Shown: in pieces, positions 1,789 to 25,287 of the stretch
How the letters are laid out: each line of letters opens with the position of its first letter
Numbering within the stretch: the stretch's first letter is position 1
Assembly (NCBI GenBank): GCA_033580375.1
Contig: GCA_033580375.1_4527.1
Strand: one strand, 5' to 3'
DNA length: 64,000 nt
Source of the DNA: a phage
Notes under the pieces: model-generated
The model's database searches: none
Told to the model about the DNA's origin: nothing
What the model saw: the letters and a program-made list of their open reading frames with translations, nothing else
Translations under genes and position numbers: made by a program

Positions 1789-2337
1789 TTAACGAGCCCA
1801 TTTGATGATTTCTGTAATCAAATCATTACGTTCGCTTGCATTAAATCCTATAACTTTGTTAGCACCATCATGATTAAGTAATTGATACGTTTGGATTTTG
1901 TTATGAATTGCAAACTCTTCAAAATGTGAAATGACTGTATTAAAACTGAGTGAAGACAAAGTAATAAGATCGTCTTCAAAACTTTCAGTCATTTCGTTAC
2001 GTGTTAAAATAATTGTGAACACGTCATGGTTTTGGCAAAGACGAACATAATCCTGCTCATAAACATCAAGAACCGAGTCCGCATCTTGTCGAATACGTCC
2101 ATAAACCCAGTTACTAATATATCCACGGTCTAACAGATAAATCTTAGTAGGGTCTAAATAATTCAACATCGTTTCGAAACAACCAACTTCATTTCGAGAC
2201 TTAACATCGAAACGTCCATCAACTGTTCGTTTAGGGAAATCAATCTTTACATATCTTTCACTAATTTCCATTATGACATTAATGAAAGTTGTTTTGCCGG
2301 CATTATCTGGGCCATCTACTAAAATAATTTTAGCCAT
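1789..2337 (-). CDS. P-loop nucleotide kinase-like protein (thymidylate-kinase-like), 182 aa
   Basis: Walker A GPDNAGKTT near N-terminus and LLDRGYISNWVYG (DRY-type motif of dNMP kinases); ATG at 2335-2337 with GAGGAA SD; occupies the locus where T4 has beta-gt. Confidence 0.6.
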   Translation of the reverse strand: MAKIILVDGPDNAGKTTFINVIMEISERYVKIDFPKRTVDGRFDVKSRNEVGCFETMLNYLDPTKIYLLDRGYISNWVYGRIRQDADSVLDVYEQDYVRLCQNHDVFTIILTRNEMTESFEDDLITLSSLSFNTVISHFEEFAIHNKIQTYQLLNHDGANKVIGFNASERNDLITEIIKWAR

Positions 2338-2338
2338 T

Positions 2339-3235
2339 TTATTCCTCGATTACGACATCTTCGTATTTAGGTATATTATACGGCGAAGAAATTAAAGCAT
2401 TAAAGTAGATGAACTCACCAAGACCTGGATGGAATACTTCTTCAGGATTTTCGAAATATTGAATCTTCGGACGTCCTTTAAGAATTTGATAGTACTCAGT
2501 TTTAGTTGGTTTAAAAATTCGAATCAGCGCTTCTTCAGGATACTTATTTCTGTCGAAGCTATTATTTGGATCGGTTATATAAAGTGGTTGTCCTAATTGA
2601 ATTGCACATTCAACCACTTGTTCAAAATGATAACACGGATCACTAATTCGAAATGGATGAAAAATACCATCTACATGAATAGGAGCCAAATCACCTACAA
2701 GACGCTGCATGATGGAAGGACGTATAACTTTCTGCGTTACGATAATCTTATTATCTGCGCCAGCGTTAACCAGCACTTCTTTTTGACGTTCATTCAACAC
2801 AGTAGTTTGAAGTGAACGATTAACCGACAACATGTCGGTTTTTAAGAATTCGTCAATATAAAAACGTGGTTTATTAGGGTCTGCAGTGATATTGAAATTG
2901 AATTCTACATCAAAAGCGCCGTCATATCCAGTGATATCTGTGATTAGAAAATCACAATCATAATAAGCAATTAATGAATCAACAACAAATTCATTTTCAG
3001 ACCAGAAATATTTACGAGTGTTATACGCGTTATCTTTATACCATAATGGAACAAACTTAAATTCTGGGAAAAGACGTTCACATTCTTTAATATCAGATGC
3101 ATTACGTGGATATGTAATCACATCACCCGGATTAGCACGGTGCAAATGAAGTTGGAAGTTGCCATCCTTAAGGATAGCATACTGTCCAGTTTCATAAGAC
3201 CGCATACTCAAGATTGGTACGCGGAAAATAGCCAT
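2339..3235 (-). CDS. Hypothetical protein, 298 aa (beta-gt locus; candidate DNA sugar transferase, unproven)
   Basis: Long intact ORF, ATG 3233-3235 overlaps gene 42 stop (TAATG); no family recognised by eye. Confidence 0.6.
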   Translation of the reverse strand: MAIFRVPILSMRSYETGQYAILKDGNFQLHLHRANPGDVITYPRNASDIKECERLFPEFKFVPLWYKDNAYNTRKYFWSENEFVVDSLIAYYDCDFLITDITGYDGAFDVEFNFNITADPNKPRFYIDEFLKTDMLSVNRSLQTTVLNERQKEVLVNAGADNKIIVTQKVIRPSIMQRLVGDLAPIHVDGIFHPFRISDPCYHFEQVVECAIQLGQPLYITDPNNSFDRNKYPEEALIRIFKPTKTEYYQILKGRPKIQYFENPEEVFHPGLGEFIYFNALISSPYNIPKYEDVVIEE

Positions 3236-3951
3236 TAGTCAAGGAATCCTTTAACATAATCAAAATCACGTTCAAACACATGGGCACTTACCATGGTATG
3301 AGTATAATCACCAACTTCTACACCGCATTCGTTAGCGATATAATGAAGTAATTTTCCTTGGAGATAAAAATCCAACTGCATAACAACAGCACAGTTCTGA
3401 GAACGCATATGACAGTGGGTATAAAGCTTACCATCACGAATATAATAAGTCACTGAGTCAGTACATGGATATTCAAGTGTTTCATCTGAATCAAGCAAAG
3501 CCTGATCAGAACTTTCTAGAATTTGGAACACAACTCTTCGAGAGTTAGGTTTTTCTTTAAGTTCTTTTAGAAGAGCTGGTAATTGAGCCGCAATGCGAGG
3601 ACCATAGAAAGTGTTGAAGTTTGCAGGCAAAGCATCTGATTTTGGTTTAGAAATAAATTTAGCGACATTAGGATATGCCTTAAACGCTTCTTCTGCATCA
3701 GTACCACCGGAAATCATAAACTTCCAGAAGTCTTCGGCATATTCATAAGATATGCGATTAATACGTGGGTCGGTCATTTTGAATGATGATGGAGTGTCAA
3801 CAACTACTGTCATAGACCCAATTTCATTACAACGTCCAATACGAGAATCAGTTACGAATTCTGGGTTTTCTAAAATTTCACGATTGACTGCTTTAAATGC
3901 GGTTTGAAAATCTGCGGCTTTGATATATTTCATTGTGTTATGTTTTCCCAT
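3235..3951 (-). CDS. 42: dCMP hydroxymethylase (thymidylate synthase family), 238 aa
   Basis: Catalytic-Cys region CTDSVTYYIRDGKLYTHCHMRSQN aligns with the ThyA/dCMP-hydroxymethylase active-site block (T4 gp42-like); ATG 3949-3951 with GAGGT SD; synteny. Confidence 0.8.
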   Translation of the reverse strand: MGKHNTMKYIKAADFQTAFKAVNREILENPEFVTDSRIGRCNEIGSMTVVVDTPSSFKMTDPRINRISYEYAEDFWKFMISGGTDAEEAFKAYPNVAKFISKPKSDALPANFNTFYGPRIAAQLPALLKELKEKPNSRRVVFQILESSDQALLDSDETLEYPCTDSVTYYIRDGKLYTHCHMRSQNCAVVMQLDFYLQGKLLHYIANECGVEVGDYTHTMVSAHVFERDFDYVKGFLD

Positions 3952-4132
3952 GTTTACCTCAATACAATTTATTATATACTCAATTCGTAAAGCTTATTTG
4001 AATTTCTTGGCAATGTTGATATAACGTAAAGCTTCAGCATCGATACTTCCAAGAACACTATGAAGAAATGCATCAGCTTAGTATTCTAATTGAACAGGTT
4101 CTTTAATCACTTTAGCCGCTTTGGTTTCAAAC

Positions 4133-4152
4133 AGGCCCATAAGGGCCTTTTT
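4133..4152. terminator. GC hairpin AGGCCC-ataa-GGGCCT followed by TTTT on the plus side
   Basis: Perfect 6-bp stem read directly; T-run only on the plus strand, so function for the minus-strand operon is uncertain. Confidence 0.35.
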
Positions 4153-4229
4153 AAGAATTTGTTCGTTAGTGTTCAGTTTCATAGTCAAAATCTCTTCATT
4201 AAGTTTATAATTAAAAGCTTTTCTAGAAA

Positions 4230-5390
4230 TCATTCCGGGTACCTCAAAGCGTCATCAGAGTTAGTTATATCAATAATAGATATGGAGTTTTCTGCTAACC
4301 CGTTTTTAGATAATTGACGTTTGTAATATCTTTCACAATATGTACACGTTGACCCACAGATTTCATTAGCACAATCGAAATCCGGATGTCTGAACCACCT
4401 TTTTTCTAAAAAGCCATCTAACAAAGAGGTTTCAATATTTACTGTATGTGAAAACTCAGTCTCATTTTCAAGAGTGAAAATAGTCTCTAAAGGCTTCCAC
4501 AGTTCTAACAAATTACCTTCAAACTTTTCAGAAGCGTATGCTTCAAGAACTTTCAAAATGTAGTCTGTGCTACCTGTACGTCCTGAAACTTTGAATTGAG
4601 TGATACCAATATCATTATAAAGTTTCAAATCTTGAGGACGAACAAAACGAGTTCTCAGCCAGTTAAATGGGTCTGTATCACGAGCTTTAATGCAGTGTTG
4701 CATTGGATATCCATTTAAGGATTTAGCATCATCAGCGGTAACATCAGTACTATGGAAAATATAGCAAGAGTCACGATAACTACAATGTGTTGTATACCCT
4801 TTACCAGCATTAGAACAGAACTCATTTACAAGAACTTCAAATATTATATTGTTCTTATTGCAAAACTCTGCTGCACGCTTCAGGAAAGAAACTGAACGGT
4901 TCTTATGAATTCCACAGCAGACCTTTTTGATATTATATTGGTCATGCAAGTATTTGATTTGAGTTACGGCATCAACATGTAGAATTGTTGAAACTTCAAT
5001 CTCAATATCTTTATTGACTTCACGAACAATTTCCATAACAACAGGGTTAGCGATAGTAATACGCCATACACCTATTGACCAAAGATACTGAACATAATCC
5101 TGAATAGCTTTCTTCTTCCACTCAACTAGTTCTCTTTTTGAACCAGGATTTATCGTGTTGAGTGTATAGTTAAAGCAAATACCTAATTCGTTACAACGTT
5201 TAACATAGTCTTCTAACATTTTTTTGTCAACGTCAGGAAGCCTAAAATCAGGTCTGGCTGCTACAAAAGCCATTTCTCTTGTAGAGCCATATACTTCGTT
5301 TATCAAGCTATTAGGATAAGTTTTATTGAGCTCTACGATTTTATCAAGAAGAGCTAAATCAAAATTCGTTCCGATTTTAAAAGTATTCAT
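4230..5390 (-). CDS. Hypothetical protein, 386 aa; possible TIM-barrel / peptidase-U32-like, Cys-rich C-terminus
   Basis: Intact ORF, ATG 5388-5390; N-terminal pattern EVYGS...ARPDF...CNELGICFNYTLNTIN and Cys cluster NEFCSNAGKGYTTHCSYRDSC weakly resemble U32-family proteins; C-terminal CANEICGSTCTYC; first gene of the inserted block. Confidence 0.55.
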   Translation of the reverse strand: MNTFKIGTNFDLALLDKIVELNKTYPNSLINEVYGSTREMAFVAARPDFRLPDVDKKMLEDYVKRCNELGICFNYTLNTINPGSKRELVEWKKKAIQDYVQYLWSIGVWRITIANPVVMEIVREVNKDIEIEVSTILHVDAVTQIKYLHDQYNIKKVCCGIHKNRSVSFLKRAAEFCNKNNIIFEVLVNEFCSNAGKGYTTHCSYRDSCYIFHSTDVTADDAKSLNGYPMQHCIKARDTDPFNWLRTRFVRPQDLKLYNDIGITQFKVSGRTGSTDYILKVLEAYASEKFEGNLLELWKPLETIFTLENETEFSHTVNIETSLLDGFLEKRWFRHPDFDCANEICGSTCTYCERYYKRQLSKNGLAENSISIIDITNSDDALRYPE

Positions 5391-5448
5391 TTTTTTGCAT
5401 CTCGCGTTAATTGATGCGATGGGTTTTTTGCAGGTCTTACTTAAATTA

Positions 5449-5835
5449 TTATAGATTCGGTTTATACGATTTAAATGTTTCGAATTCGCCTTTATTCATA
5501 AGAGCTTTGAATTCGTCAGGACGCATAGCTTTGTCGTCGATAATCCAATCATATACTGGTTTATGTGTTAGCAAATTATGGTACTTCAAACCAATGTTTT
5601 CCAAGTTCTGAATCAGACTTGGGAGAATGTCAATTGCTATACGACCAGGACCTACTGACTTCATACCACGAGCAGTGTAAAGCGTTATGGTATGCCCTGC
5701 ATCATACAGGGCATTAATGGCGGTCACCATTTCGACGTCTGGTTTGAAGTTCGCGTAATCACGATTGTTATTCCATTCCGTGATGCAATCATCGACATCA
5801 AAACAAAGATTAAGCATGTTTTCTACACGGCGCAT
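5449..5835 (-). CDS. HAD-superfamily phosphatase, about 128 aa
   Basis: HAD motif I LCFDVDDCIT near N-terminus; ATG at 5833-5835 overlaps upstream stop (TAATG); ORF track start 5850 is an alternative. Confidence 0.7.
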   Translation of the reverse strand: MRRVENMLNLCFDVDDCITEWNNNRDYANFKPDVEMVTAINALYDAGHTITLYTARGMKSVGPGRIAIDILPSLIQNLENIGLKYHNLLTHKPVYDWIIDDKAMRPDEFKALMNKGEFETFKSYKPNL

Positions 5836-7520
5836 TAGATTCGTTCCCATTGATGAGTGATATCGCCACCGATTGGACGATAGGAAACACCAGTTTCTTT
5901 ATCAGTTAGTACCCATTTACCAGGATTTTTTGTAATCAGAGTAGCCGTTACAGGTTCTGCTACGTCATAACTAATAGAGCCGTCTTGAAGTACACGACCC
6001 ATGTTACGTAATTGCTTAGTCAGAAGTTCCATACCTTTATAATATGCGGCTACCGCTTTAAGTGGATTATTCTTGAAATAACCACCTAATGCAATCCAGA
6101 TAATCGCCACTGCCAAATGATGATACTCGTTAAACGAACTCATCTTTCCATATTTGTAAACTAATGGATTGATGTTAATAGTCACATTACAAGTTGTTTC
6201 GTCAATAGTAAACTGTCCCCAGGTCGGATTAGCATTGAATTCATCATAACCTGAAACAGCATAAAGCACTTTAGCTTCATCGTACAATTTTGGCCCGTAA
6301 ATCTTGGTTTCACCAAAATATCCACGAGGGTCGATAAACTTGACTTCGCCGTTATCAGTAATCATAGTATTACTGAAGTTCGGGTCACCGTGAATAACAG
6401 AGTACTGTCCCTGAGAACGGTTATGATAACGAATAAGGTGTTCTAAAGCTTGTTTCAACATTGGCTTCAGACGTCCAATCTTAGTGTAGTTCACATGTGT
6501 GATTTTACCAAATGAATCAATCAATGGTTGAATGCTTTCACAACGATCAATAACTTTCGTATAGAATTCTTTAGTGAAATCACGACGAACAGTTTCAGGA
6601 CTTACAAAATAAATGTCTGTGCTGAATTTCAGTGCATCTAAAATTGCATCAACAATTTGTGGACGAGCAAGACTTGATTTGGATTTAATATATTCAAATG
6701 CTGGCTTACCTTTAATGCGTTCCATTTCAAAGTTATTTTCATTAACAGAAACTAACTGAGGAACTGAATCTGATTTTACTTTCAAATACCATGAAATCTC
6801 ATCTTTTTGAAGAGCTCGTCCCTGTTCTGTTAATGCGAATTTAGTTACAGTTTCTTCACCAATTTCAACTGCATTAAAACTACGATTAAGTTCACGAACT
6901 TCATGAGCCTTTTCAAGTTTAGGCATATCACCTAAATCAATTAGATTCATAAGCTCTGATTTATTGAATGCACTGCCGTAAAGGAATTCTACAAAATCAC
7001 GTCCTTTACAGTATTCGTGAATTTCCTCGTCAGTAGAACCCATGTAGAATTCCCAGTCTTTGAACTGATAAATTCCTACAACATTACCGCCTGTTGAACC
7101 TACGTTAGTGATATTTTCACCATCGAAATTATATCGACATTCATCACCCTTAACATAGATTGCGTTAACATTCCAAGACCATGAACCAAAATCTGGAATA
7201 ATATCACACCAGTTAACAACTACGTTATGGCCGTCTAAATCTTTATGTAATTTAGCAAGAGCATAAGCAGAACCATACGCTTCATCAACTGTACGAATAG
7301 TCACATTGAACCCTTCTTGCTCACAATAAGCTCGAACAGTTTCAGCAAATTTTGAATGAACTACTACAATAATTTCATCTGCACCAAGGTCAGAATAAAT
7401 TGTATACAAATTGCTCAGAATAGTGTCTTGTTTATAGTTCACAAGAACTTTTGGAATATGGTGAGTAATTGGATATAAACGAGTTGCCAGTCCAGCACCA
7501 AGAATAACAGCTTTTTTCAT
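5835..7520 (-). CDS. Bifunctional sugar-1-phosphate nucleotidyltransferase (N-term) / APH-like sugar kinase (C-term), 561 aa
   Basis: N-terminus MKKAVILGAGLATRLYPIT...PKVLV is a classic NDP-sugar pyrophosphorylase signature; C-terminal HGDPNFSNTMITDNGEVKFIDPRGYFG is an HxDxxxxN catalytic loop plus D-x-G of APH/choline-kinase-like kinases; ATG 7518-7520 with GAGGA SD. Confidence 0.8.
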   Translation of the reverse strand: MKKAVILGAGLATRLYPITHHIPKVLVNYKQDTILSNLYTIYSDLGADEIIVVVHSKFAETVRAYCEQEGFNVTIRTVDEAYGSAYALAKLHKDLDGHNVVVNWCDIIPDFGSWSWNVNAIYVKGDECRYNFDGENITNVGSTGGNVVGIYQFKDWEFYMGSTDEEIHEYCKGRDFVEFLYGSAFNKSELMNLIDLGDMPKLEKAHEVRELNRSFNAVEIGEETVTKFALTEQGRALQKDEISWYLKVKSDSVPQLVSVNENNFEMERIKGKPAFEYIKSKSSLARPQIVDAILDALKFSTDIYFVSPETVRRDFTKEFYTKVIDRCESIQPLIDSFGKITHVNYTKIGRLKPMLKQALEHLIRYHNRSQGQYSVIHGDPNFSNTMITDNGEVKFIDPRGYFGETKIYGPKLYDEAKVLYAVSGYDEFNANPTWGQFTIDETTCNVTININPLVYKYGKMSSFNEYHHLAVAIIWIALGGYFKNNPLKAVAAYYKGMELLTKQLRNMGRVLQDGSISYDVAEPVTATLITKNPGKWVLTDKETGVSYRPIGGDITHQWERI

Positions 7521-7573: not shown

Positions 7574-7705
7574 TTCATACTTTGCTTGTAGTCCAATCAT
7601 AATCCATCCAATTACAAGTGTTGGAATCATTACTGGAGCCGTTAAGCTCCAGTAGATAGTCATGACAAGCATCAATAGTAAAAGTCCTATTGTTATTGCT
7701 TTCAT
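7562..7705 (-). CDS. Small membrane protein, 47 aa (not in ORF track)
   Basis: Hand translation MKAITIGLLLLMLVMTIYWSLTAPVMIPTLVIGWIMIGLQAKYECFN; ATG overlaps upstream stop as ATGA (translational coupling); single predicted TM helix. Confidence 0.45.
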   Translation of the reverse strand: MKAITIGLLLLMLVMTIYWSLTAPVMIPTLVIGWIMIGLQAKYECFN

Positions 7706-8337
7706 TGCTCGCCTCGTAACATGGCACCTAGAGCACCGCCAGGGTGGAACTTAAGGAAATCATTAGAGGTAAATCCACGTTCAGACGAAAGGTTGATAGC
7801 AAACGTATCGATAAGCGCTAACAACAATGTAGTGGACATGGTCGGAGCTAAAGAGTTCTCGTCAACTTCTACCGCGATACCGGTACAGAACGTATAATCA
7901 AAAAGAGCTTCGTATTCTTGCGGAATGTCAGGGTTACAATGTAACAGAATCTGTTTAACCTGAGGACGAATCATACGAAGATGTTTAGCAACACCTATCA
8001 TTTCTTCAGTCTTACCAGAACGACTGATGTGAACTAATACATCATTAGGTGCAATAAATCCTGCGTCGCCATGAGAATAATGCCCAGTGTTCAAATACAT
8101 GCTAGGAATACCGAGTGAAGCAAATGTCTCAGAAGCTTTAGTTGCAATATTAGCATTCTTACCAACACCTGTAATAATTACACGACTTTCATAATTACTC
8201 AGTCCAGGGCGTCGAAGAGTTTCAAGAATAGCATTATAACGAGCAGGGTTTTGACTAATTACTTTGGCCATAGCGGCCAAAGAAGAAGCTTGTTTTATGA
8301 TTGCGTCAATAGCGATAGTAATAGGAGTAGTTTTCAT
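7702..8337 (-). CDS. SIS-domain sugar-phosphate isomerase, arabinose-5-phosphate isomerase (KdsD/KpsF)-like, 211 aa
   Basis: GVGKNANIATKASETFASLGIPSMYL...HGDAGFIAPNDVLVHISRSGKTEE and FLKFHPGGALG closely resemble the KdsD/GutQ SIS domain; no CBS pair; ATG 8335-8337. Confidence 0.8.
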   Translation of the reverse strand: MKTTPITIAIDAIIKQASSLAAMAKVISQNPARYNAILETLRRPGLSNYESRVIITGVGKNANIATKASETFASLGIPSMYLNTGHYSHGDAGFIAPNDVLVHISRSGKTEEMIGVAKHLRMIRPQVKQILLHCNPDIPQEYEALFDYTFCTGIAVEVDENSLAPTMSTTLLLALIDTFAINLSSERGFTSNDFLKFHPGGALGAMLRGEQ

Positions 8338-22532: not shown

Positions 22533-23003
22533 TTAATCATGTTTCCACACCCCATCGGTATTTGACCAAAGTCGCTGATTATCTGATCCTCGCCATAGCT
22601 TTTTGGTCGGAAGATTTTTCTCATACTTCCCATCAATAATAACATCAACATATTTAAGCATTTCTAGCTGTTTAATATCTTCAAACTTATATCCTGTCCA
22701 CAACCAAATGCTTTTATTGGGATAAAGATTTTTAATAGTTTGAACCACAGAATGAATAACATCTCGGTTGTCAGGATAGAGAGGGTCTCCTCCAGATATA
22801 GTTAATCCTTCTATATAATCATTATTCAAACATTCAATTAATTGTTCTAGTGTCTCTCCGGTGAATGGAGCACCATTTCTAGCGTTCCATGTTGATTTAT
22901 TATAACACCCTTCACATTTATGCAAACACCCTGTAACGAAAAGAACGACCCTACAACCAGGGCCATTAACAAAATCGCAAGGATAAAATCTATCATAATT
23001 CAT
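22533..23003 (-). CDS. nrdG: Anaerobic ribonucleotide reductase activating enzyme NrdG (radical SAM), 156 aa
   Basis: CxxxCxxC cluster (GCLHKCEGC); ATGA overlap with nrdD stop. Confidence 0.9.
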   Translation of the reverse strand: MNYDRFYPCDFVNGPGCRVVLFVTGCLHKCEGCYNKSTWNARNGAPFTGETLEQLIECLNNDYIEGLTISGGDPLYPDNRDVIHSVVQTIKNLYPNKSIWLWTGYKFEDIKQLEMLKYVDVIIDGKYEKNLPTKKLWRGSDNQRLWSNTDGVWKHD

Positions 23004-24817
23004 TGGTGTTTAACCCTATGCATGATTTCTTTATTTTTACCGAGATTAAATCCGCGTTCGTTCGGATTTCCAAGATAACCGCATGTTCTTCTTATGGTGT
23101 TCATCTTTTTAGGATCAGTTTCTCCGCAAACTGAACAAACAAATCCATTTTCAGTAGGAGTCATTTCATGAGTACTTCCACATGTAAAACATTTATCTAC
23201 TGGCATATTAACACCAAAATAATCTAAATGTTGTGCAGCATAATCCCAGACAGCCTCAAGTCCCTTTAAATTGTTTTTCATATCAGGAAGTTCAACATAA
23301 GAAATGTGACCACCTGTCGCAATGAAATGATATGGCGCTTCACGAGAAATCTTTTCAAACGGAGTAATATTTTCTTCTACTGAAACGTGGAAACTATTAG
23401 TGTACCAGCCTTTATCGGTAACATCTTTTACACTTCCGTATTTTTCTGTATCAAGTTTACAGAAGCGATAACAAAGGTTTTCAGCAGGAGTCGAATATAA
23501 ACTAAAAGCAAATCCAGTTCTTTCAGTCCACTGTTTAAGATGAGCATTCATTTTAGTTAAAATTTCTTGCCCAATATCACGACCGACAAGAATATTCAAT
23601 TCGTGAATACCAATGTATCCCAAAGACACTGAACTTCTACCGTTTTTAAATAACTCAATTATGTCGTCATCTGGTTTAAGACGAACCCCGAATGCACCTT
23701 CTTGGTAAAGAATAGGAGCAACAGTCGCTTTAACTCCTTTTAAGGAACTAATTCTACACATCAAAGCTTCAAAACATAAATCCATTCGTTCATTGAATAA
23801 TTCAACAAATTTCTGTTCATTGAACTGTGTTCCAATATAAGAATCTAATGCGATACGAGGAAGATTCAGCGTTACAACACCGAGATTATTACGCCCATCA
23901 AGAATTTCATTACTGGTTGAATCTTTCCATACGCTCAAGAAACTACGGCAACCCATTGGAGAAACTGGAACTGAAGAACCGGTAATAACTTTGTTATTCT
24001 TAACCGAAATGATGTCAGGATACATTCTTTTGCTTGCACATTCTAACGCAAGCTGCTTAATATCATAGTTCGGGTCGTCTTTATAAAGATTAACACCTTC
24101 TTCAATGAACATAACAAGTTTAGGGAAAATAGGAGTTATTCCATCACGACCAAGACCTTTAATCCGATTTTTCAGAATTGCTTTCTGAATCATTCGTTCA
24201 GTCCAATCGGTTCCCGTACCAAATGTAATTGTTACAAAAGGCGTTTGTCCATTTGAACTAAAGAGAGTATTTACTTCATATTCATAAGCTTGGAATGCAT
24301 CGTATACGTCTTTTTCTGTTTTAGATTGAGCATAATTCAACGCATCAGCGATTTGCCATTTTTCTGCATCCTCAATATGTTTTGCATAGGTGCGTTTAAC
24401 ATAAGGAGAAAGTACTTTATCTACATTAGCAAAAGTCGTTCCGCCGTATTGATGTGAAGCAACTTGTGCAGTAATTTGTGCCATAATTGCAGTAGCAACA
24501 CCAATCGATTTAGGCGTTTCAATTTGAGCATTGCCTAATTTAAAACCATTCTCAAGCATCCCCTTTAAATCGACTAAACAGCAATTGGTAAACGGAAGAG
24601 CAGGAGAATAATCAATATCATGCATATGAATGATTCCGCTTTCATGCGCATTCATAATAAAAGACGGGACCATATTTTTGGCAATGTGCTTAGACACAAT
24701 ACCAGCCATAAGGTCCCGTTGAGTTGGAAAAACACGAGAATCTTTATTAGCATTCTCGTTCAAAAGATCTTTATTAGTTTTATAAATTAATCCTTCAATT
24801 TCTTTTTCAATTTTCAT
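23000..24817 (-). CDS. nrdD: Anaerobic ribonucleoside-triphosphate reductase NrdD, 605 aa
   Basis: C-terminal glycyl-radical motif RRTCGYLG and Zn-ribbon CxxC...CxxC; uninterrupted ORF (no intron). Confidence 0.95.
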   Translation of the reverse strand: MKIEKEIEGLIYKTNKDLLNENANKDSRVFPTQRDLMAGIVSKHIAKNMVPSFIMNAHESGIIHMHDIDYSPALPFTNCCLVDLKGMLENGFKLGNAQIETPKSIGVATAIMAQITAQVASHQYGGTTFANVDKVLSPYVKRTYAKHIEDAEKWQIADALNYAQSKTEKDVYDAFQAYEYEVNTLFSSNGQTPFVTITFGTGTDWTERMIQKAILKNRIKGLGRDGITPIFPKLVMFIEEGVNLYKDDPNYDIKQLALECASKRMYPDIISVKNNKVITGSSVPVSPMGCRSFLSVWKDSTSNEILDGRNNLGVVTLNLPRIALDSYIGTQFNEQKFVELFNERMDLCFEALMCRISSLKGVKATVAPILYQEGAFGVRLKPDDDIIELFKNGRSSVSLGYIGIHELNILVGRDIGQEILTKMNAHLKQWTERTGFAFSLYSTPAENLCYRFCKLDTEKYGSVKDVTDKGWYTNSFHVSVEENITPFEKISREAPYHFIATGGHISYVELPDMKNNLKGLEAVWDYAAQHLDYFGVNMPVDKCFTCGSTHEMTPTENGFVCSVCGETDPKKMNTIRRTCGYLGNPNERGFNLGKNKEIMHRVKHQ

Positions 24818-25287
24818 TTTAAACTCTTTCTAAGCTGCTTTTTGAATGAAGCTATTAATTGTGTTTTAGTATCAGATTCATTATATTCAAATCCTCTTTG
24901 AAGCATCTCAGCCATCATTTCCTCTTTACCTAGTCTTGAGAACTCTTTAGTTTTGTCTGGAACAAAATTAGGATGTATATTATTATCAGAATAATCTTGT
25001 TTCAAATAAGCAAGAAGAGCTTCAAGCCATTCGAGGTAGTCGACATCACGACCTTTAAGACCAGAACGGTTGAACTTATGCTTCATTTGGCCTTCTGCTG
25101 CGTTGCACAGAGAACAGAGTAACCCACGAACTCTACCGGCTTTTGGCCCGTTTAATTCATGGTCGTGGTCAAGATGGTTACCTTGAACATCAGAGTCTAA
25201 TTCACGGTGGCAAATAGGACACTTACCGTTCTGTGCATCATAAAATTTTTGTTTTTCTTCTTTATATTTTGCGCCTGATAATAACAT
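24814..25287 (-). CDS. 49: Endonuclease VII (Holliday junction resolvase) gp49, 157 aa
   Basis: MLLSGAKYKEEKQKFYDAQNGKCPICHRELD...HLDHDHELNGPKAGRVRGLLCSLCNAAEG matches T4 endo VII as recalled. Confidence 0.92.
   Translation of the reverse strand: MLLSGAKYKEEKQKFYDAQNGKCPICHRELDSDVQGNHLDHDHELNGPKAGRVRGLLCSLCNAAEGQMKHKFNRSGLKGRDVDYLEWLEALLAYLKQDYSDNNIHPNFVPDKTKEFSRLGKEEMMAEMLQRGFEYNESDTKTQLIASFKKQLRKSLK

Follow-up and report, generated by a model that had tools for sequence, protein, structure and literature searches.

The 64,000-nucleotide stretch of phage DNA analysed here (GenBank assembly GCA_033580375.1, contig GCA_033580375.1_4527.1; referred to as the window) belongs to a T-even-type phage and contains at positions 4230–5390 of the minus strand an open reading frame (ORF) with an ATG start. 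The encoded protein of 386 amino acids (aa) belongs to the U32 family and is identical to RB69 gp50 (RB69p050) in 383 of its 386 residues. Sequence and gene context suggest, with slightly better than even confidence on our side, that gp50 is an O2-independent, prephenate-dependent cytosine C5 hydroxylase and the anaerobic counterpart of the ThyA-like enzyme gp48. The strongest evidence for this assignment is the link of the gene to prephenate synthesis. U32 proteins as a hydroxylation family and the gp48 route are known; what is new is a U32 subfamily specific to phages, for which a DNA precursor is the proposed substrate. Since 222 phage records encode the U32 protein (at least 80% identity over at least 80% of the length), it does not represent a chance ORF.

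RB69 DNA was first taken to contain arabinosyl-hydroxymethylcytosine (PMC6024577). More recent work places the sugar on 5-hydroxycytosine, i.e. arabinosylated 5-hydroxycytosine, and reports the same modification for DLP3 and Maestro DNA (PMC13326640, 2026). According to this study the ThyA homolog gp48 of RB69 binds flavin and makes 5-hydroxy-dCMP with oxygen from 18O2, and cytosine replacement in T-even-type phages occurs at the level of the nucleotides, by way of a dCTPase, which is listed for RB69, and a dNMP kinase (PMC13326640). A dCTPase is also annotated in the related clusters of phages KIT01 and PspYZU05. The discussion of the same study calls the RlhA and TrhP/TrhO pathways unrelated to gp48, and the membership of gp50 in the RlhA/TrhP family is not noted there (PMC13326640). 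The authors of the work on phage Thanatos gave no hypothesis on how the hydroxyl is attached to cytosine (PMC12838424). In the full-text literature searched (U32 in combination with phage, and the Afh names) no function is assigned to this gene.

All characterised U32 proteins are tied to O2-independent hydroxylation that needs prephenate and iron-sulfur (Fe–S) clusters. RlhA is the 5-hydroxycytidine synthase for C2501 of E. coli 23S rRNA and requires prephenate and Fe–S biogenesis (PMC5727448). TrhP leads to 5-hydroxyuridine in tRNA in a prephenate-dependent and O2-independent manner and has an O2-dependent partner, TrhO; facultative anaerobes possess both, strict anaerobes the U32 route alone (PMC6599085). 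UbiU/V carry out O2-independent hydroxylation of ubiquinone precursors, for which 18O labelling identified prephenate as the oxygen donor (PMC10990095).

The U32 gene is linked to chorismate mutase and DAHP synthase genes

A gene for chorismate mutase (CM) is located between the U32 and ThyA-like genes of Serratia phage LC53 and of Enterobacter phage Entb_45, overlapping each of the two by 4 bases. Both products matched Pfam CM_2 above cut-off (expect values, E, of 2e-11 and 2e-10). By tblastn, a CM gene was found in 54 phage records from about a dozen host genera, and it lies inside the modification cluster in all records for which the position was checked. Within a viral contig collection, CM is present in 13 of 15 loci of Straboviridae (T-even-type phages). 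In most related genera it stands between the U32 and ThyA-like genes, alone or together with a gp49-like ORF. In Shewanella phage Thanatos-2 it is a direct neighbour of U32, with the ThyA-like gene at a distance of about 1.5 kb.

Viral contigs encoding U32 proteins of 45–55% identity show CM domains adjoining U32 in loci L035–L037, L040, L042–L044 and L046–L048; in three of these cases CM is fused to DAHP synthase, and in L004 and L025 the neighbour of U32 is a DAHP synthase alone. DAHP synthase catalyses the first committed step, and chorismate mutase the last step, toward prephenate. An unbiased Pfam count of the neighbours of U32 in 21 distant loci after dereplication (149 ORFs, at a distance of up to about 3 kb) was led by DAHP_synth_1 and CM_2, with 5 each, in a tie with DNA polymerase III domains; none of the 25 families listed is a thymidylate-synthase family. 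This linkage gives indirect support to a dependence of the U32 protein on prephenate.

An identity of the DAHP_synth_1 neighbours as Kdo8P synthase, which would tie them to arabinose-5-phosphate, was rejected: the NCBIfam score was 63 bits, compared with 216–237 bits for DAHP synthase models, and a CM fusion is present in three of the proteins. DAHP synthase–CM fusions beside U32 were located in L035 (8411–9433), L037 (7302–8357), L046 (11079–12197) and L057 (4931–5959). Phage auxiliary genes of the shikimate pathway of this type seem not to be discussed in the literature searched. The short gp49 ORF next to the U32 gene of the window was also considered as a decayed CM. Neither the 51-aa ORF nor the intact gp49 of RB69 matched CM_2 (PF01817), even at E 10, and gp49-like and true CM genes coexist in L013, L019, L022 and L026. 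As gp49 is not a CM, the window is without a phage chorismate mutase.

The protein belongs to a divergent subfamily of U32 TIM barrels

Pfam Peptidase_U32 (PF01136) matched residues 94–286 over profile positions 2–192 of 233, with 42.2 bits at a gathering cut-off of 22.4 (E 7.3e-11). An AlphaFold2 (AF2) model from 45 homologs (pLDDT 91.9, pTM 0.90) shows strands and helices in alternation, as in a TIM barrel, and an extension at the C-terminal end of the barrel. Its top Foldseek match in the PDB is the U32 protein Mk0906 (5d88; E 2.3e-7, TM score 0.71 normalised to the target), and the remaining PDB matches are generic TIM barrels. A sequence search against PDB chains gave nothing useful. The initial annotation, which was made from the letters of the window, had guessed a U32-like TIM barrel and named Foldseek as a check on it. 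The motifs it quoted are all found in the protein (EVYGS at residue 32, ARPDF at 45, CNELGICFNYTLNTIN at 66 and NEFCSNAGKGYTTHCSYRDSC at 189), and the guess is borne out by both the profile and the structural match.

The profile of the phage family was aligned with the four E. coli paralogs by hhalign. The best alignment was obtained with RlhA (E 2e-5 over 203 columns), followed by TrhP (E 0.003, N-terminal half only) and UbiU (E 0.01); that with UbiV was not significant. The remark of the initial annotation on O2-independent hydroxylation of nucleobases thus appears to have been the right lead. The phage protein could not be assigned as an ortholog of the RlhA, TrhP or UbiU/UbiV subfamilies. 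The phage subfamily comprises 474 clusters at E ≤1e-30 and 1,693 at E ≤1e-3. Because just these 1,693 of 1.84 billion representatives match the profile, the phage U32 proteins are considered a separate divergent subfamily, well apart from the mainstream cellular U32 families as judged by sequence. A radical SAM identity was rejected: there is no Radical_SAM match in Pfam at E up to 1, and the CX3CX2C stretch lies in the C-terminal extension after the barrel, together with a fourth conserved Cys, C340.

Two sets of putative metal ligands are conserved

The U32 protein contains 13 Cys residues (3.4%), of which conservation was followed in 124 remote homologs (24–47% identical). In the first putative ligand set C192 is kept in 122 homologs and C203 and C233 in all 124, and position 209 is occupied by Cys in 74 and by His in 49. 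The residues of the second set (C340, C345, C349 and C352) are kept in 116–118 of the 124 and are invariant across 45 close homologs. Both four-ligand sets persist down to 24% identity, one of them with the Cys/His swap. C158 and C177 are invariant in the 45 close homologs and not conserved in the wider family. The Cys cluster singled out by the initial annotation (NEFCSNAGKGYTTHCSYRDSC) contains three of the four ligands of the first set (C192, C203, C209), and the conservation check that it proposed brought out both sets. C203 and C209 align with C169 and C176 of RlhA. This conservation suggests that the protein may bind an Fe–S cluster; the second set could hold another cluster or zinc.

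Distribution of the U32 gene points to a possible accessory, O2-free route

The ThyA-like hydroxylase is encoded in 374 phage records, 57 of them from Acinetobacter phages. The 222 U32 records stem from phages of Enterobacterales and Shewanella, and the gene is missing in the otherwise syntenic clusters of Acinetobacter phage Maestro and Pseudomonas phage PspYZU05 as well as in DLP3. Two roles had been offered for the U32 protein in the initial annotation, the missing transferase or an extra chemical step on the base or sugar. The transferase role does not hold: the glycosyltransferases of RB69 are gp46:47 and gp3 (PMC13326640), and the U32 protein is without a glycosyltransferase fold. The extra step fails in the form in which it was stated, as syntenic clusters without U32 were found in DLP3, Maestro, PspYZU05 and KIT01. 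Absence from phages that share the modification had been named beforehand as an argument against the idea; DLP3 and Maestro show this absence, and an obligatory extra step is therefore not supported. A conditional and redundant role fits these data, namely a second, O2-independent route to the 5-hydroxy intermediate that is also the product of the neighbouring O2-dependent ThyA homolog. The cluster of KIT01 (L053, 5878–10589) is also without CM and without a detectable homolog of the SIS isomerase; a 167-aa ORF of unknown function stands at the isomerase position.

The window encodes a class III (anaerobic) ribonucleotide reductase, NrdD, together with NrdG, its radical-SAM activase (22533–23003 and 23000–24817, minus strand). 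Because it carries both, the phage is equipped for O2-free synthesis of DNA precursors. The oxygen introduced by gp48 comes from O2, which suggests a need for an O2-free enzyme in such a phage. For NrdD in T4-like phages (2,902 records), Acinetobacter is outside the ten commonest names (cut-off 41), which would allow for a smaller number of Acinetobacter records. A gene for endonuclease VII (24814–25287) is located immediately upstream of the NrdD/NrdG genes.

Among 185,579 species-representative genomes six loci in all carry the subfamily, and all of them are bins of strict anaerobes (Erysipelotrichales, Bacillota, Gastranaerophilaceae, Romboutsia twice, Lachnospiraceae); CM is nearby in 4 of the 6. 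No gp48 homolog was found within 10 kb of U32 in the distant viral loci. The strict-anaerobe bins, the absence from the Acinetobacter and Pseudomonas phage clusters and the NrdD/NrdG genes of the window give indirect support to hydroxylation without O2. Between genera no other gene of the cluster is as well conserved as U32, which shows 82–89% identity, compared with 73–83% for the ThyA-like protein and 51–72% for the glycosyltransferase.

Many distant loci contain homologs of the base-proximal glycosyltransferase, the NTP-transferase/kinase and the SIS isomerase, and glycosyltransferase homologs (24–27% identity) are found directly upstream of U32 in five of them. Further distant loci have genes for mononucleotide enzymes near U32 (dCMP deaminase, Tmk, dNK, NT5C), and L001 and L002 have nucleotide genes near U32 and no sugar genes nearby. 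In L001 (7447–9086; a 466-kb JGI contig of jumbo-phage size) the dCMP deaminase gene overlaps the start of U32 by 4 bases. This arrangement hints that some relatives may hydroxylate dUMP in place of dCMP. The U32 gene of L001 is also near Tmk, UDG-fold and glycosyltransferase-like genes. L002 (12160–14360; likewise L003 and L056) contains a second, very divergent U32-like ORF with a Pfam score of 21.7 bits, just below the cut-off. This ORF lies 4 kb from the main U32 gene, directly after a gene for a radical SAM/SPASM protein, and is surrounded by genes for NT5C, dNK and nucleoside deoxyribosyltransferase.

Proposed route to 5-hydroxycytosine without O2

In the proposed reaction the U32 enzyme would oxidise dCMP at C5 to 5-hydroxy-dCMP in the absence of O2. 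The oxygen atom would come from prephenate, as has been proposed for RlhA, TrhP and UbiU/V; prephenate would be decarboxylated to phenylpyruvate and donate the hydroxyl, as for UbiU/V, and two metal centres would pass electrons on to an acceptor. Conversion of 5-hydroxy-dCMP to the triphosphate by the dNMP kinase and further kinases would allow incorporation by the polymerase, after which the arabinosyltransferases would decorate the 5-hydroxyl handle on the DNA. When O2 is present, gp48 would perform the same step, so that either enzyme could supply the hydroxyl. As RB69-type phages encode a dCTPase, a block in 5-hydroxy-dCMP formation under anoxia should stall replication. More prephenate would be available through the phage CM or, in some distant phages, the DAHP synthase–CM fusion. 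Phages of strict anaerobes, whose loci gave no ThyA-like gene near U32, would have the U32 enzyme as their sole hydroxylase. The data themselves establish the family, the fold, the conservation of both ligand sets, the linkage and the distribution of the gene; the Fe–S clusters, the use of prephenate, a mononucleotide and not a polymer as substrate, and the role under anoxia are predicted from them.

A wider reading, which we hold tentatively as somewhat short of an even chance, joins these points. In this reading a phage U32 Fe–S hydroxylase acts on a free deoxynucleotide, which would be the first U32 protein in DNA modification and the first viral one, and CM and DAHP synthase are carried to supply prephenate as the oxygen donor. 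Phages of facultative anaerobes would keep both routes, and phages of strict gut anaerobes would use U32 alone to make DNA with glycosylated 5-hydroxypyrimidine.

If true, this would account for the replication of phages with 5-hydroxycytosine DNA in the anoxic gut, although the hydroxylase known for them needs O2, and it would answer the question left open by the Thanatos authors. Prephenate-dependent hydroxylation, known for RNA and quinones, would then include DNA precursors, and there would be a reason for the CM and DAHP synthase genes carried by phages. With a single 386-aa chain and the small, soluble dCMP as substrate, U32 chemistry with prephenate would become far simpler to study than on ribosome precursors, tRNA or membrane quinones, and could for the first time be reconstituted in vitro. 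The modification status of a phage could also differ between aerobic laboratory culture and the gut, and therefore its sensitivity to restriction and CRISPR could differ, which is relevant to phage therapy and engineering.

Weighing of alternative functions

The same U32 chemistry might be directed to another substrate, either cytosine in DNA or host or phage RNA (tRNA U34, rRNA C2501). All characterised nucleobase-directed U32 enzymes act on polymers, the best-aligning paralog RlhA is one of them, and this analysis did not identify a nucleotide-binding site in the U32 protein. Nevertheless we regard a polymer substrate as unlikely, because the phage protein has no counterpart to the extended C-terminal parts of RlhA (653 aa) and TrhP (453 aa), its gene is embedded in a DNA-modification cluster and adjoins genes for mononucleotide enzymes in distant phages, and replacement at the nucleotide level leaves little unmodified cytosine in the phage DNA (PMC13326640). 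Less likely still is an enzyme of the sugar branch, by redox or other chemistry altering the pentose or the nucleotide-sugar donor. The only mention of gp50 in PMC13326640, a table entry derived from the same 5d88 fold match, labels it as "sugar or heterocycle reductase". Such a role agrees with the position of the gene directly after the sugar-activation genes, with the co-occurrence of U32 with SIS, NTP-transferase/kinase, epimerase and glycosyltransferase homologs in distant phages, and with Thanatos, which carries the U32 gene and for which a deoxypentose instead of arabinose was reported (PMC12838424). However, RB69 with U32 and DLP3 without it share arabinosyl-5-hydroxycytosine (PMC13326640). 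No NAD(P)-, flavin- or sugar-binding domain was detected in the protein, and L001 and L002 have no sugar genes near U32. We see no rationale in the sugar pathway for the recurrent linkage to CM and DAHP synthase, and to our knowledge no U32 member acts on sugars. A true peptidase (collagenase-like PrtC) is suggested by the family name and by the annotation of most GenBank records as "peptidase" or "collagenase-like protease". This label is historical. We give a peptidase hardly any credence, as the characterised U32 members are involved in hydroxylation, the conserved residues are Cys/His ligand sets and include no recognisable protease catalytic set, and the gene context throughout is that of nucleotide and DNA modification.

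Several points weigh against the assignment of gp50 as a prephenate-dependent hydroxylase. Besides the published reductase label, the direct hydroxylase activity of the cellular U32 proteins has not been reconstituted and their oxidant is unknown (PMC10990095), and the literature searched contains no biochemical or genetic test of a gp50-type protein. The Mosigviruses, including the phage of the window, have no CM and would rely on host PheA/TyrA. The E. coli Dhakavirus KIT01 has a cluster without U32 despite its facultatively anaerobic host; U32 is therefore accessory and not required in every such host, and the rule by host lifestyle is not strict. The distant phages may carry a hydroxylase or hydroxymethylase beyond 10 kb. 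None of the NCBIfam equivalogs for RlhA, TrhP or UbiU/V was reached, the only match being to UbiU with 18.5 bits at a cut-off of 440. Finally, the phage protein does not contain the canonical U32 signature, tested as E-x-F-x2-G-[SA]-[LIVM]-C-x4-G-x-C-x-[LIVM]-S (which we take to be PROSITE PS01276), or the cysteine motif, tested as CX6CX15CX3-4C and absent in its CX6CX15CX3C form. The signature pattern matched E. coli UbiU, RlhA and TrhP, in which the cysteine motif was confirmed as well. At the motif site the phage protein has E190-F191-C192, a 5-residue insertion, and then C203-x5-C209 and C233, which by alignment appears as a variant of the canonical motif and not as a loss of ligands.

Comparison with known systems

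RlhA (YdcP) shares the U32 TIM-barrel domain with the phage protein, and its product, a 5-hydroxylated cytosine, is the same base modification as in RB69 DNA. In contrast to the phage protein, RlhA is a chain of 653 aa with the canonical CX6CX15CX3C motif and the PROSITE-like signature, and its substrate is a ribosomal precursor. The phage protein is shorter (386 aa), has the ligands C192/C203/C209(H)/C233 and an added C-terminal CX4CX3CX2C, and is proposed to use a deoxynucleotide. Mk0906 of Methanopyrus kandleri (5d88) is the best structural match of gp50, as also reported in PMC13326640, but the two proteins are only 11% identical, and Mk0906, of unknown function, consists of a core of 247 residues and lacks the C-terminal Cys domain of the phage protein.

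The TrhP/TrhO pair resembles the proposed situation in that one modification is made by two unrelated enzymes, an O2-independent U32 protein and an O2-dependent one. It differs in its substrate, tRNA uridine, and in its O2-dependent partner, which is a rhodanese-family protein and not a ThyA homolog. The genes of TrhP and TrhO are unlinked, whereas the phage U32 and ThyA-like genes are adjacent, and the sequence relation of TrhP to the phage family is weak. UbiU–UbiV (with UbiT) likewise is a U32 Fe–S system that replaces flavin/O2 hydroxylases (UbiI/H/F) under anoxia. Its two [4Fe-4S] clusters may parallel the two ligand sets within the single phage polypeptide. Unlike the phage protein UbiU–UbiV is a heterodimer acting on the aromatic ring of a lipid, and the similarity is weak. 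The reaction proposed for gp50 (dCMP to 5-hydroxy-dCMP) would be the same as that of RB69 gp48, DLP3 gp80 and the homologous HY126 enzyme. The two types of enzyme are unrelated in fold, cofactor and oxygen source; the activity of gp48 is experimental (PMC13326640), that of gp50 is predicted.

The gene cluster of the window

The features of the cluster are listed in Table 1. The 6.7 kb surrounding the U32 gene are 97–98% identical to many genomes of Mosigvirus (RB69-like phages), and UvsX, DNA polymerase gp43 and RegA are encoded on the flanks of the U32 region. The initial annotation had placed the U32 gene at the distal end of a sugar module. It is located instead at a junction, with sugar-activation genes on one side and base-side genes on the other, all on the minus strand. 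The U32 and ThyA-like genes are 279 bases apart within one cluster.

Table 1. Features of the U32 gene and its neighbours in the window
Feature	Position	Strand	Basis
U32-family protein, RB69 gp50 ortholog	4230..5390	-	ORF, Pfam, identity, AF2/Foldseek; function predicted from family and gene context
Putative metal (Fe–S) ligand set 1, C192-x10-C203-x5-C209-x23-C233	4692..4817	-	Codons 192–233; conservation
Putative ligand set 2, C340-x4-C345-x3-C349-x2-C352	4335..4373	-	Codons 340–352; conservation
gp49 remnant	3994..4233	-	51-aa ORF at 4078–4233; phrog_8601 match to positions 1–51 of 79
ThyA-like 5-hydroxy-dCMP synthase (gp48)	3235..3951	-	100% identical to RB69 gp48
Glycosyltransferase (gp46:47), predicted base-proximal arabinosyltransferase	2339..3235	-	phrog_3891; fold according to PMC13326640 Table 1
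Thymidylate-kinase-like nucleotide kinase (gp45)	1789..2337	-	phrog_761; PMC13326640 Table 1
HAD-type phosphatase (gp51, AfhF-like)	5449..5850	-	phrog_1238; PMC13326640
Bifunctional sugar-1-phosphate nucleotidyltransferase and kinase (gp52:53, AfhE-like)	5835..7520	-	Pfam NTP_transferase and kinase-like matches; PMC13326640
SIS-domain arabinose-5-phosphate isomerase (gp55)	7702..8337	-	Pfam SIS; phrog_5670

The assumption of the initial annotation that the U32 gene is co-transcribed with the sugar genes is plausible from the tight packing on one strand with some overlaps and from a search that found no minus-strand terminator-like site. Promoter- and terminator-like matches did not add to it, as they were not above shuffled controls. 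A promoter or terminator separating U32 from its neighbours was rejected, since the counts do not exceed those of the shuffles, and a stem-loop upstream of the U32 start codon was not significant (z −0.53).

The 51-aa gp49 ORF overlaps the stop of the U32 gene by 4 bases. It is broken by TAA at codon 52, which corresponds to Tyr52 in the 79-aa gp49 of RB69, and the frame stays open for 27 more codons. Over the gp49 stretch the DNA identity to Mosigvirus genomes is 90–98%, below that of the flanking U32 gene. Just upstream of the U32 start, at 5391–5402 of the minus strand, a run of seven A residues stands between two ATGs; RB69 has six. The RB69 annotation starts 3 codons earlier. Because this upstream ATG is out of frame in the window, translation probably begins at the conserved MNTFK, and the start annotated in RB69 is likely to be 3 codons too early. 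The glycosyltransferase and NTP-transferase/kinase genes are single intact ORFs in the window, and the split of gp46:47 and gp52:53 in the RB69 reference record has been attributed to sequencing errors (PMC13326640).

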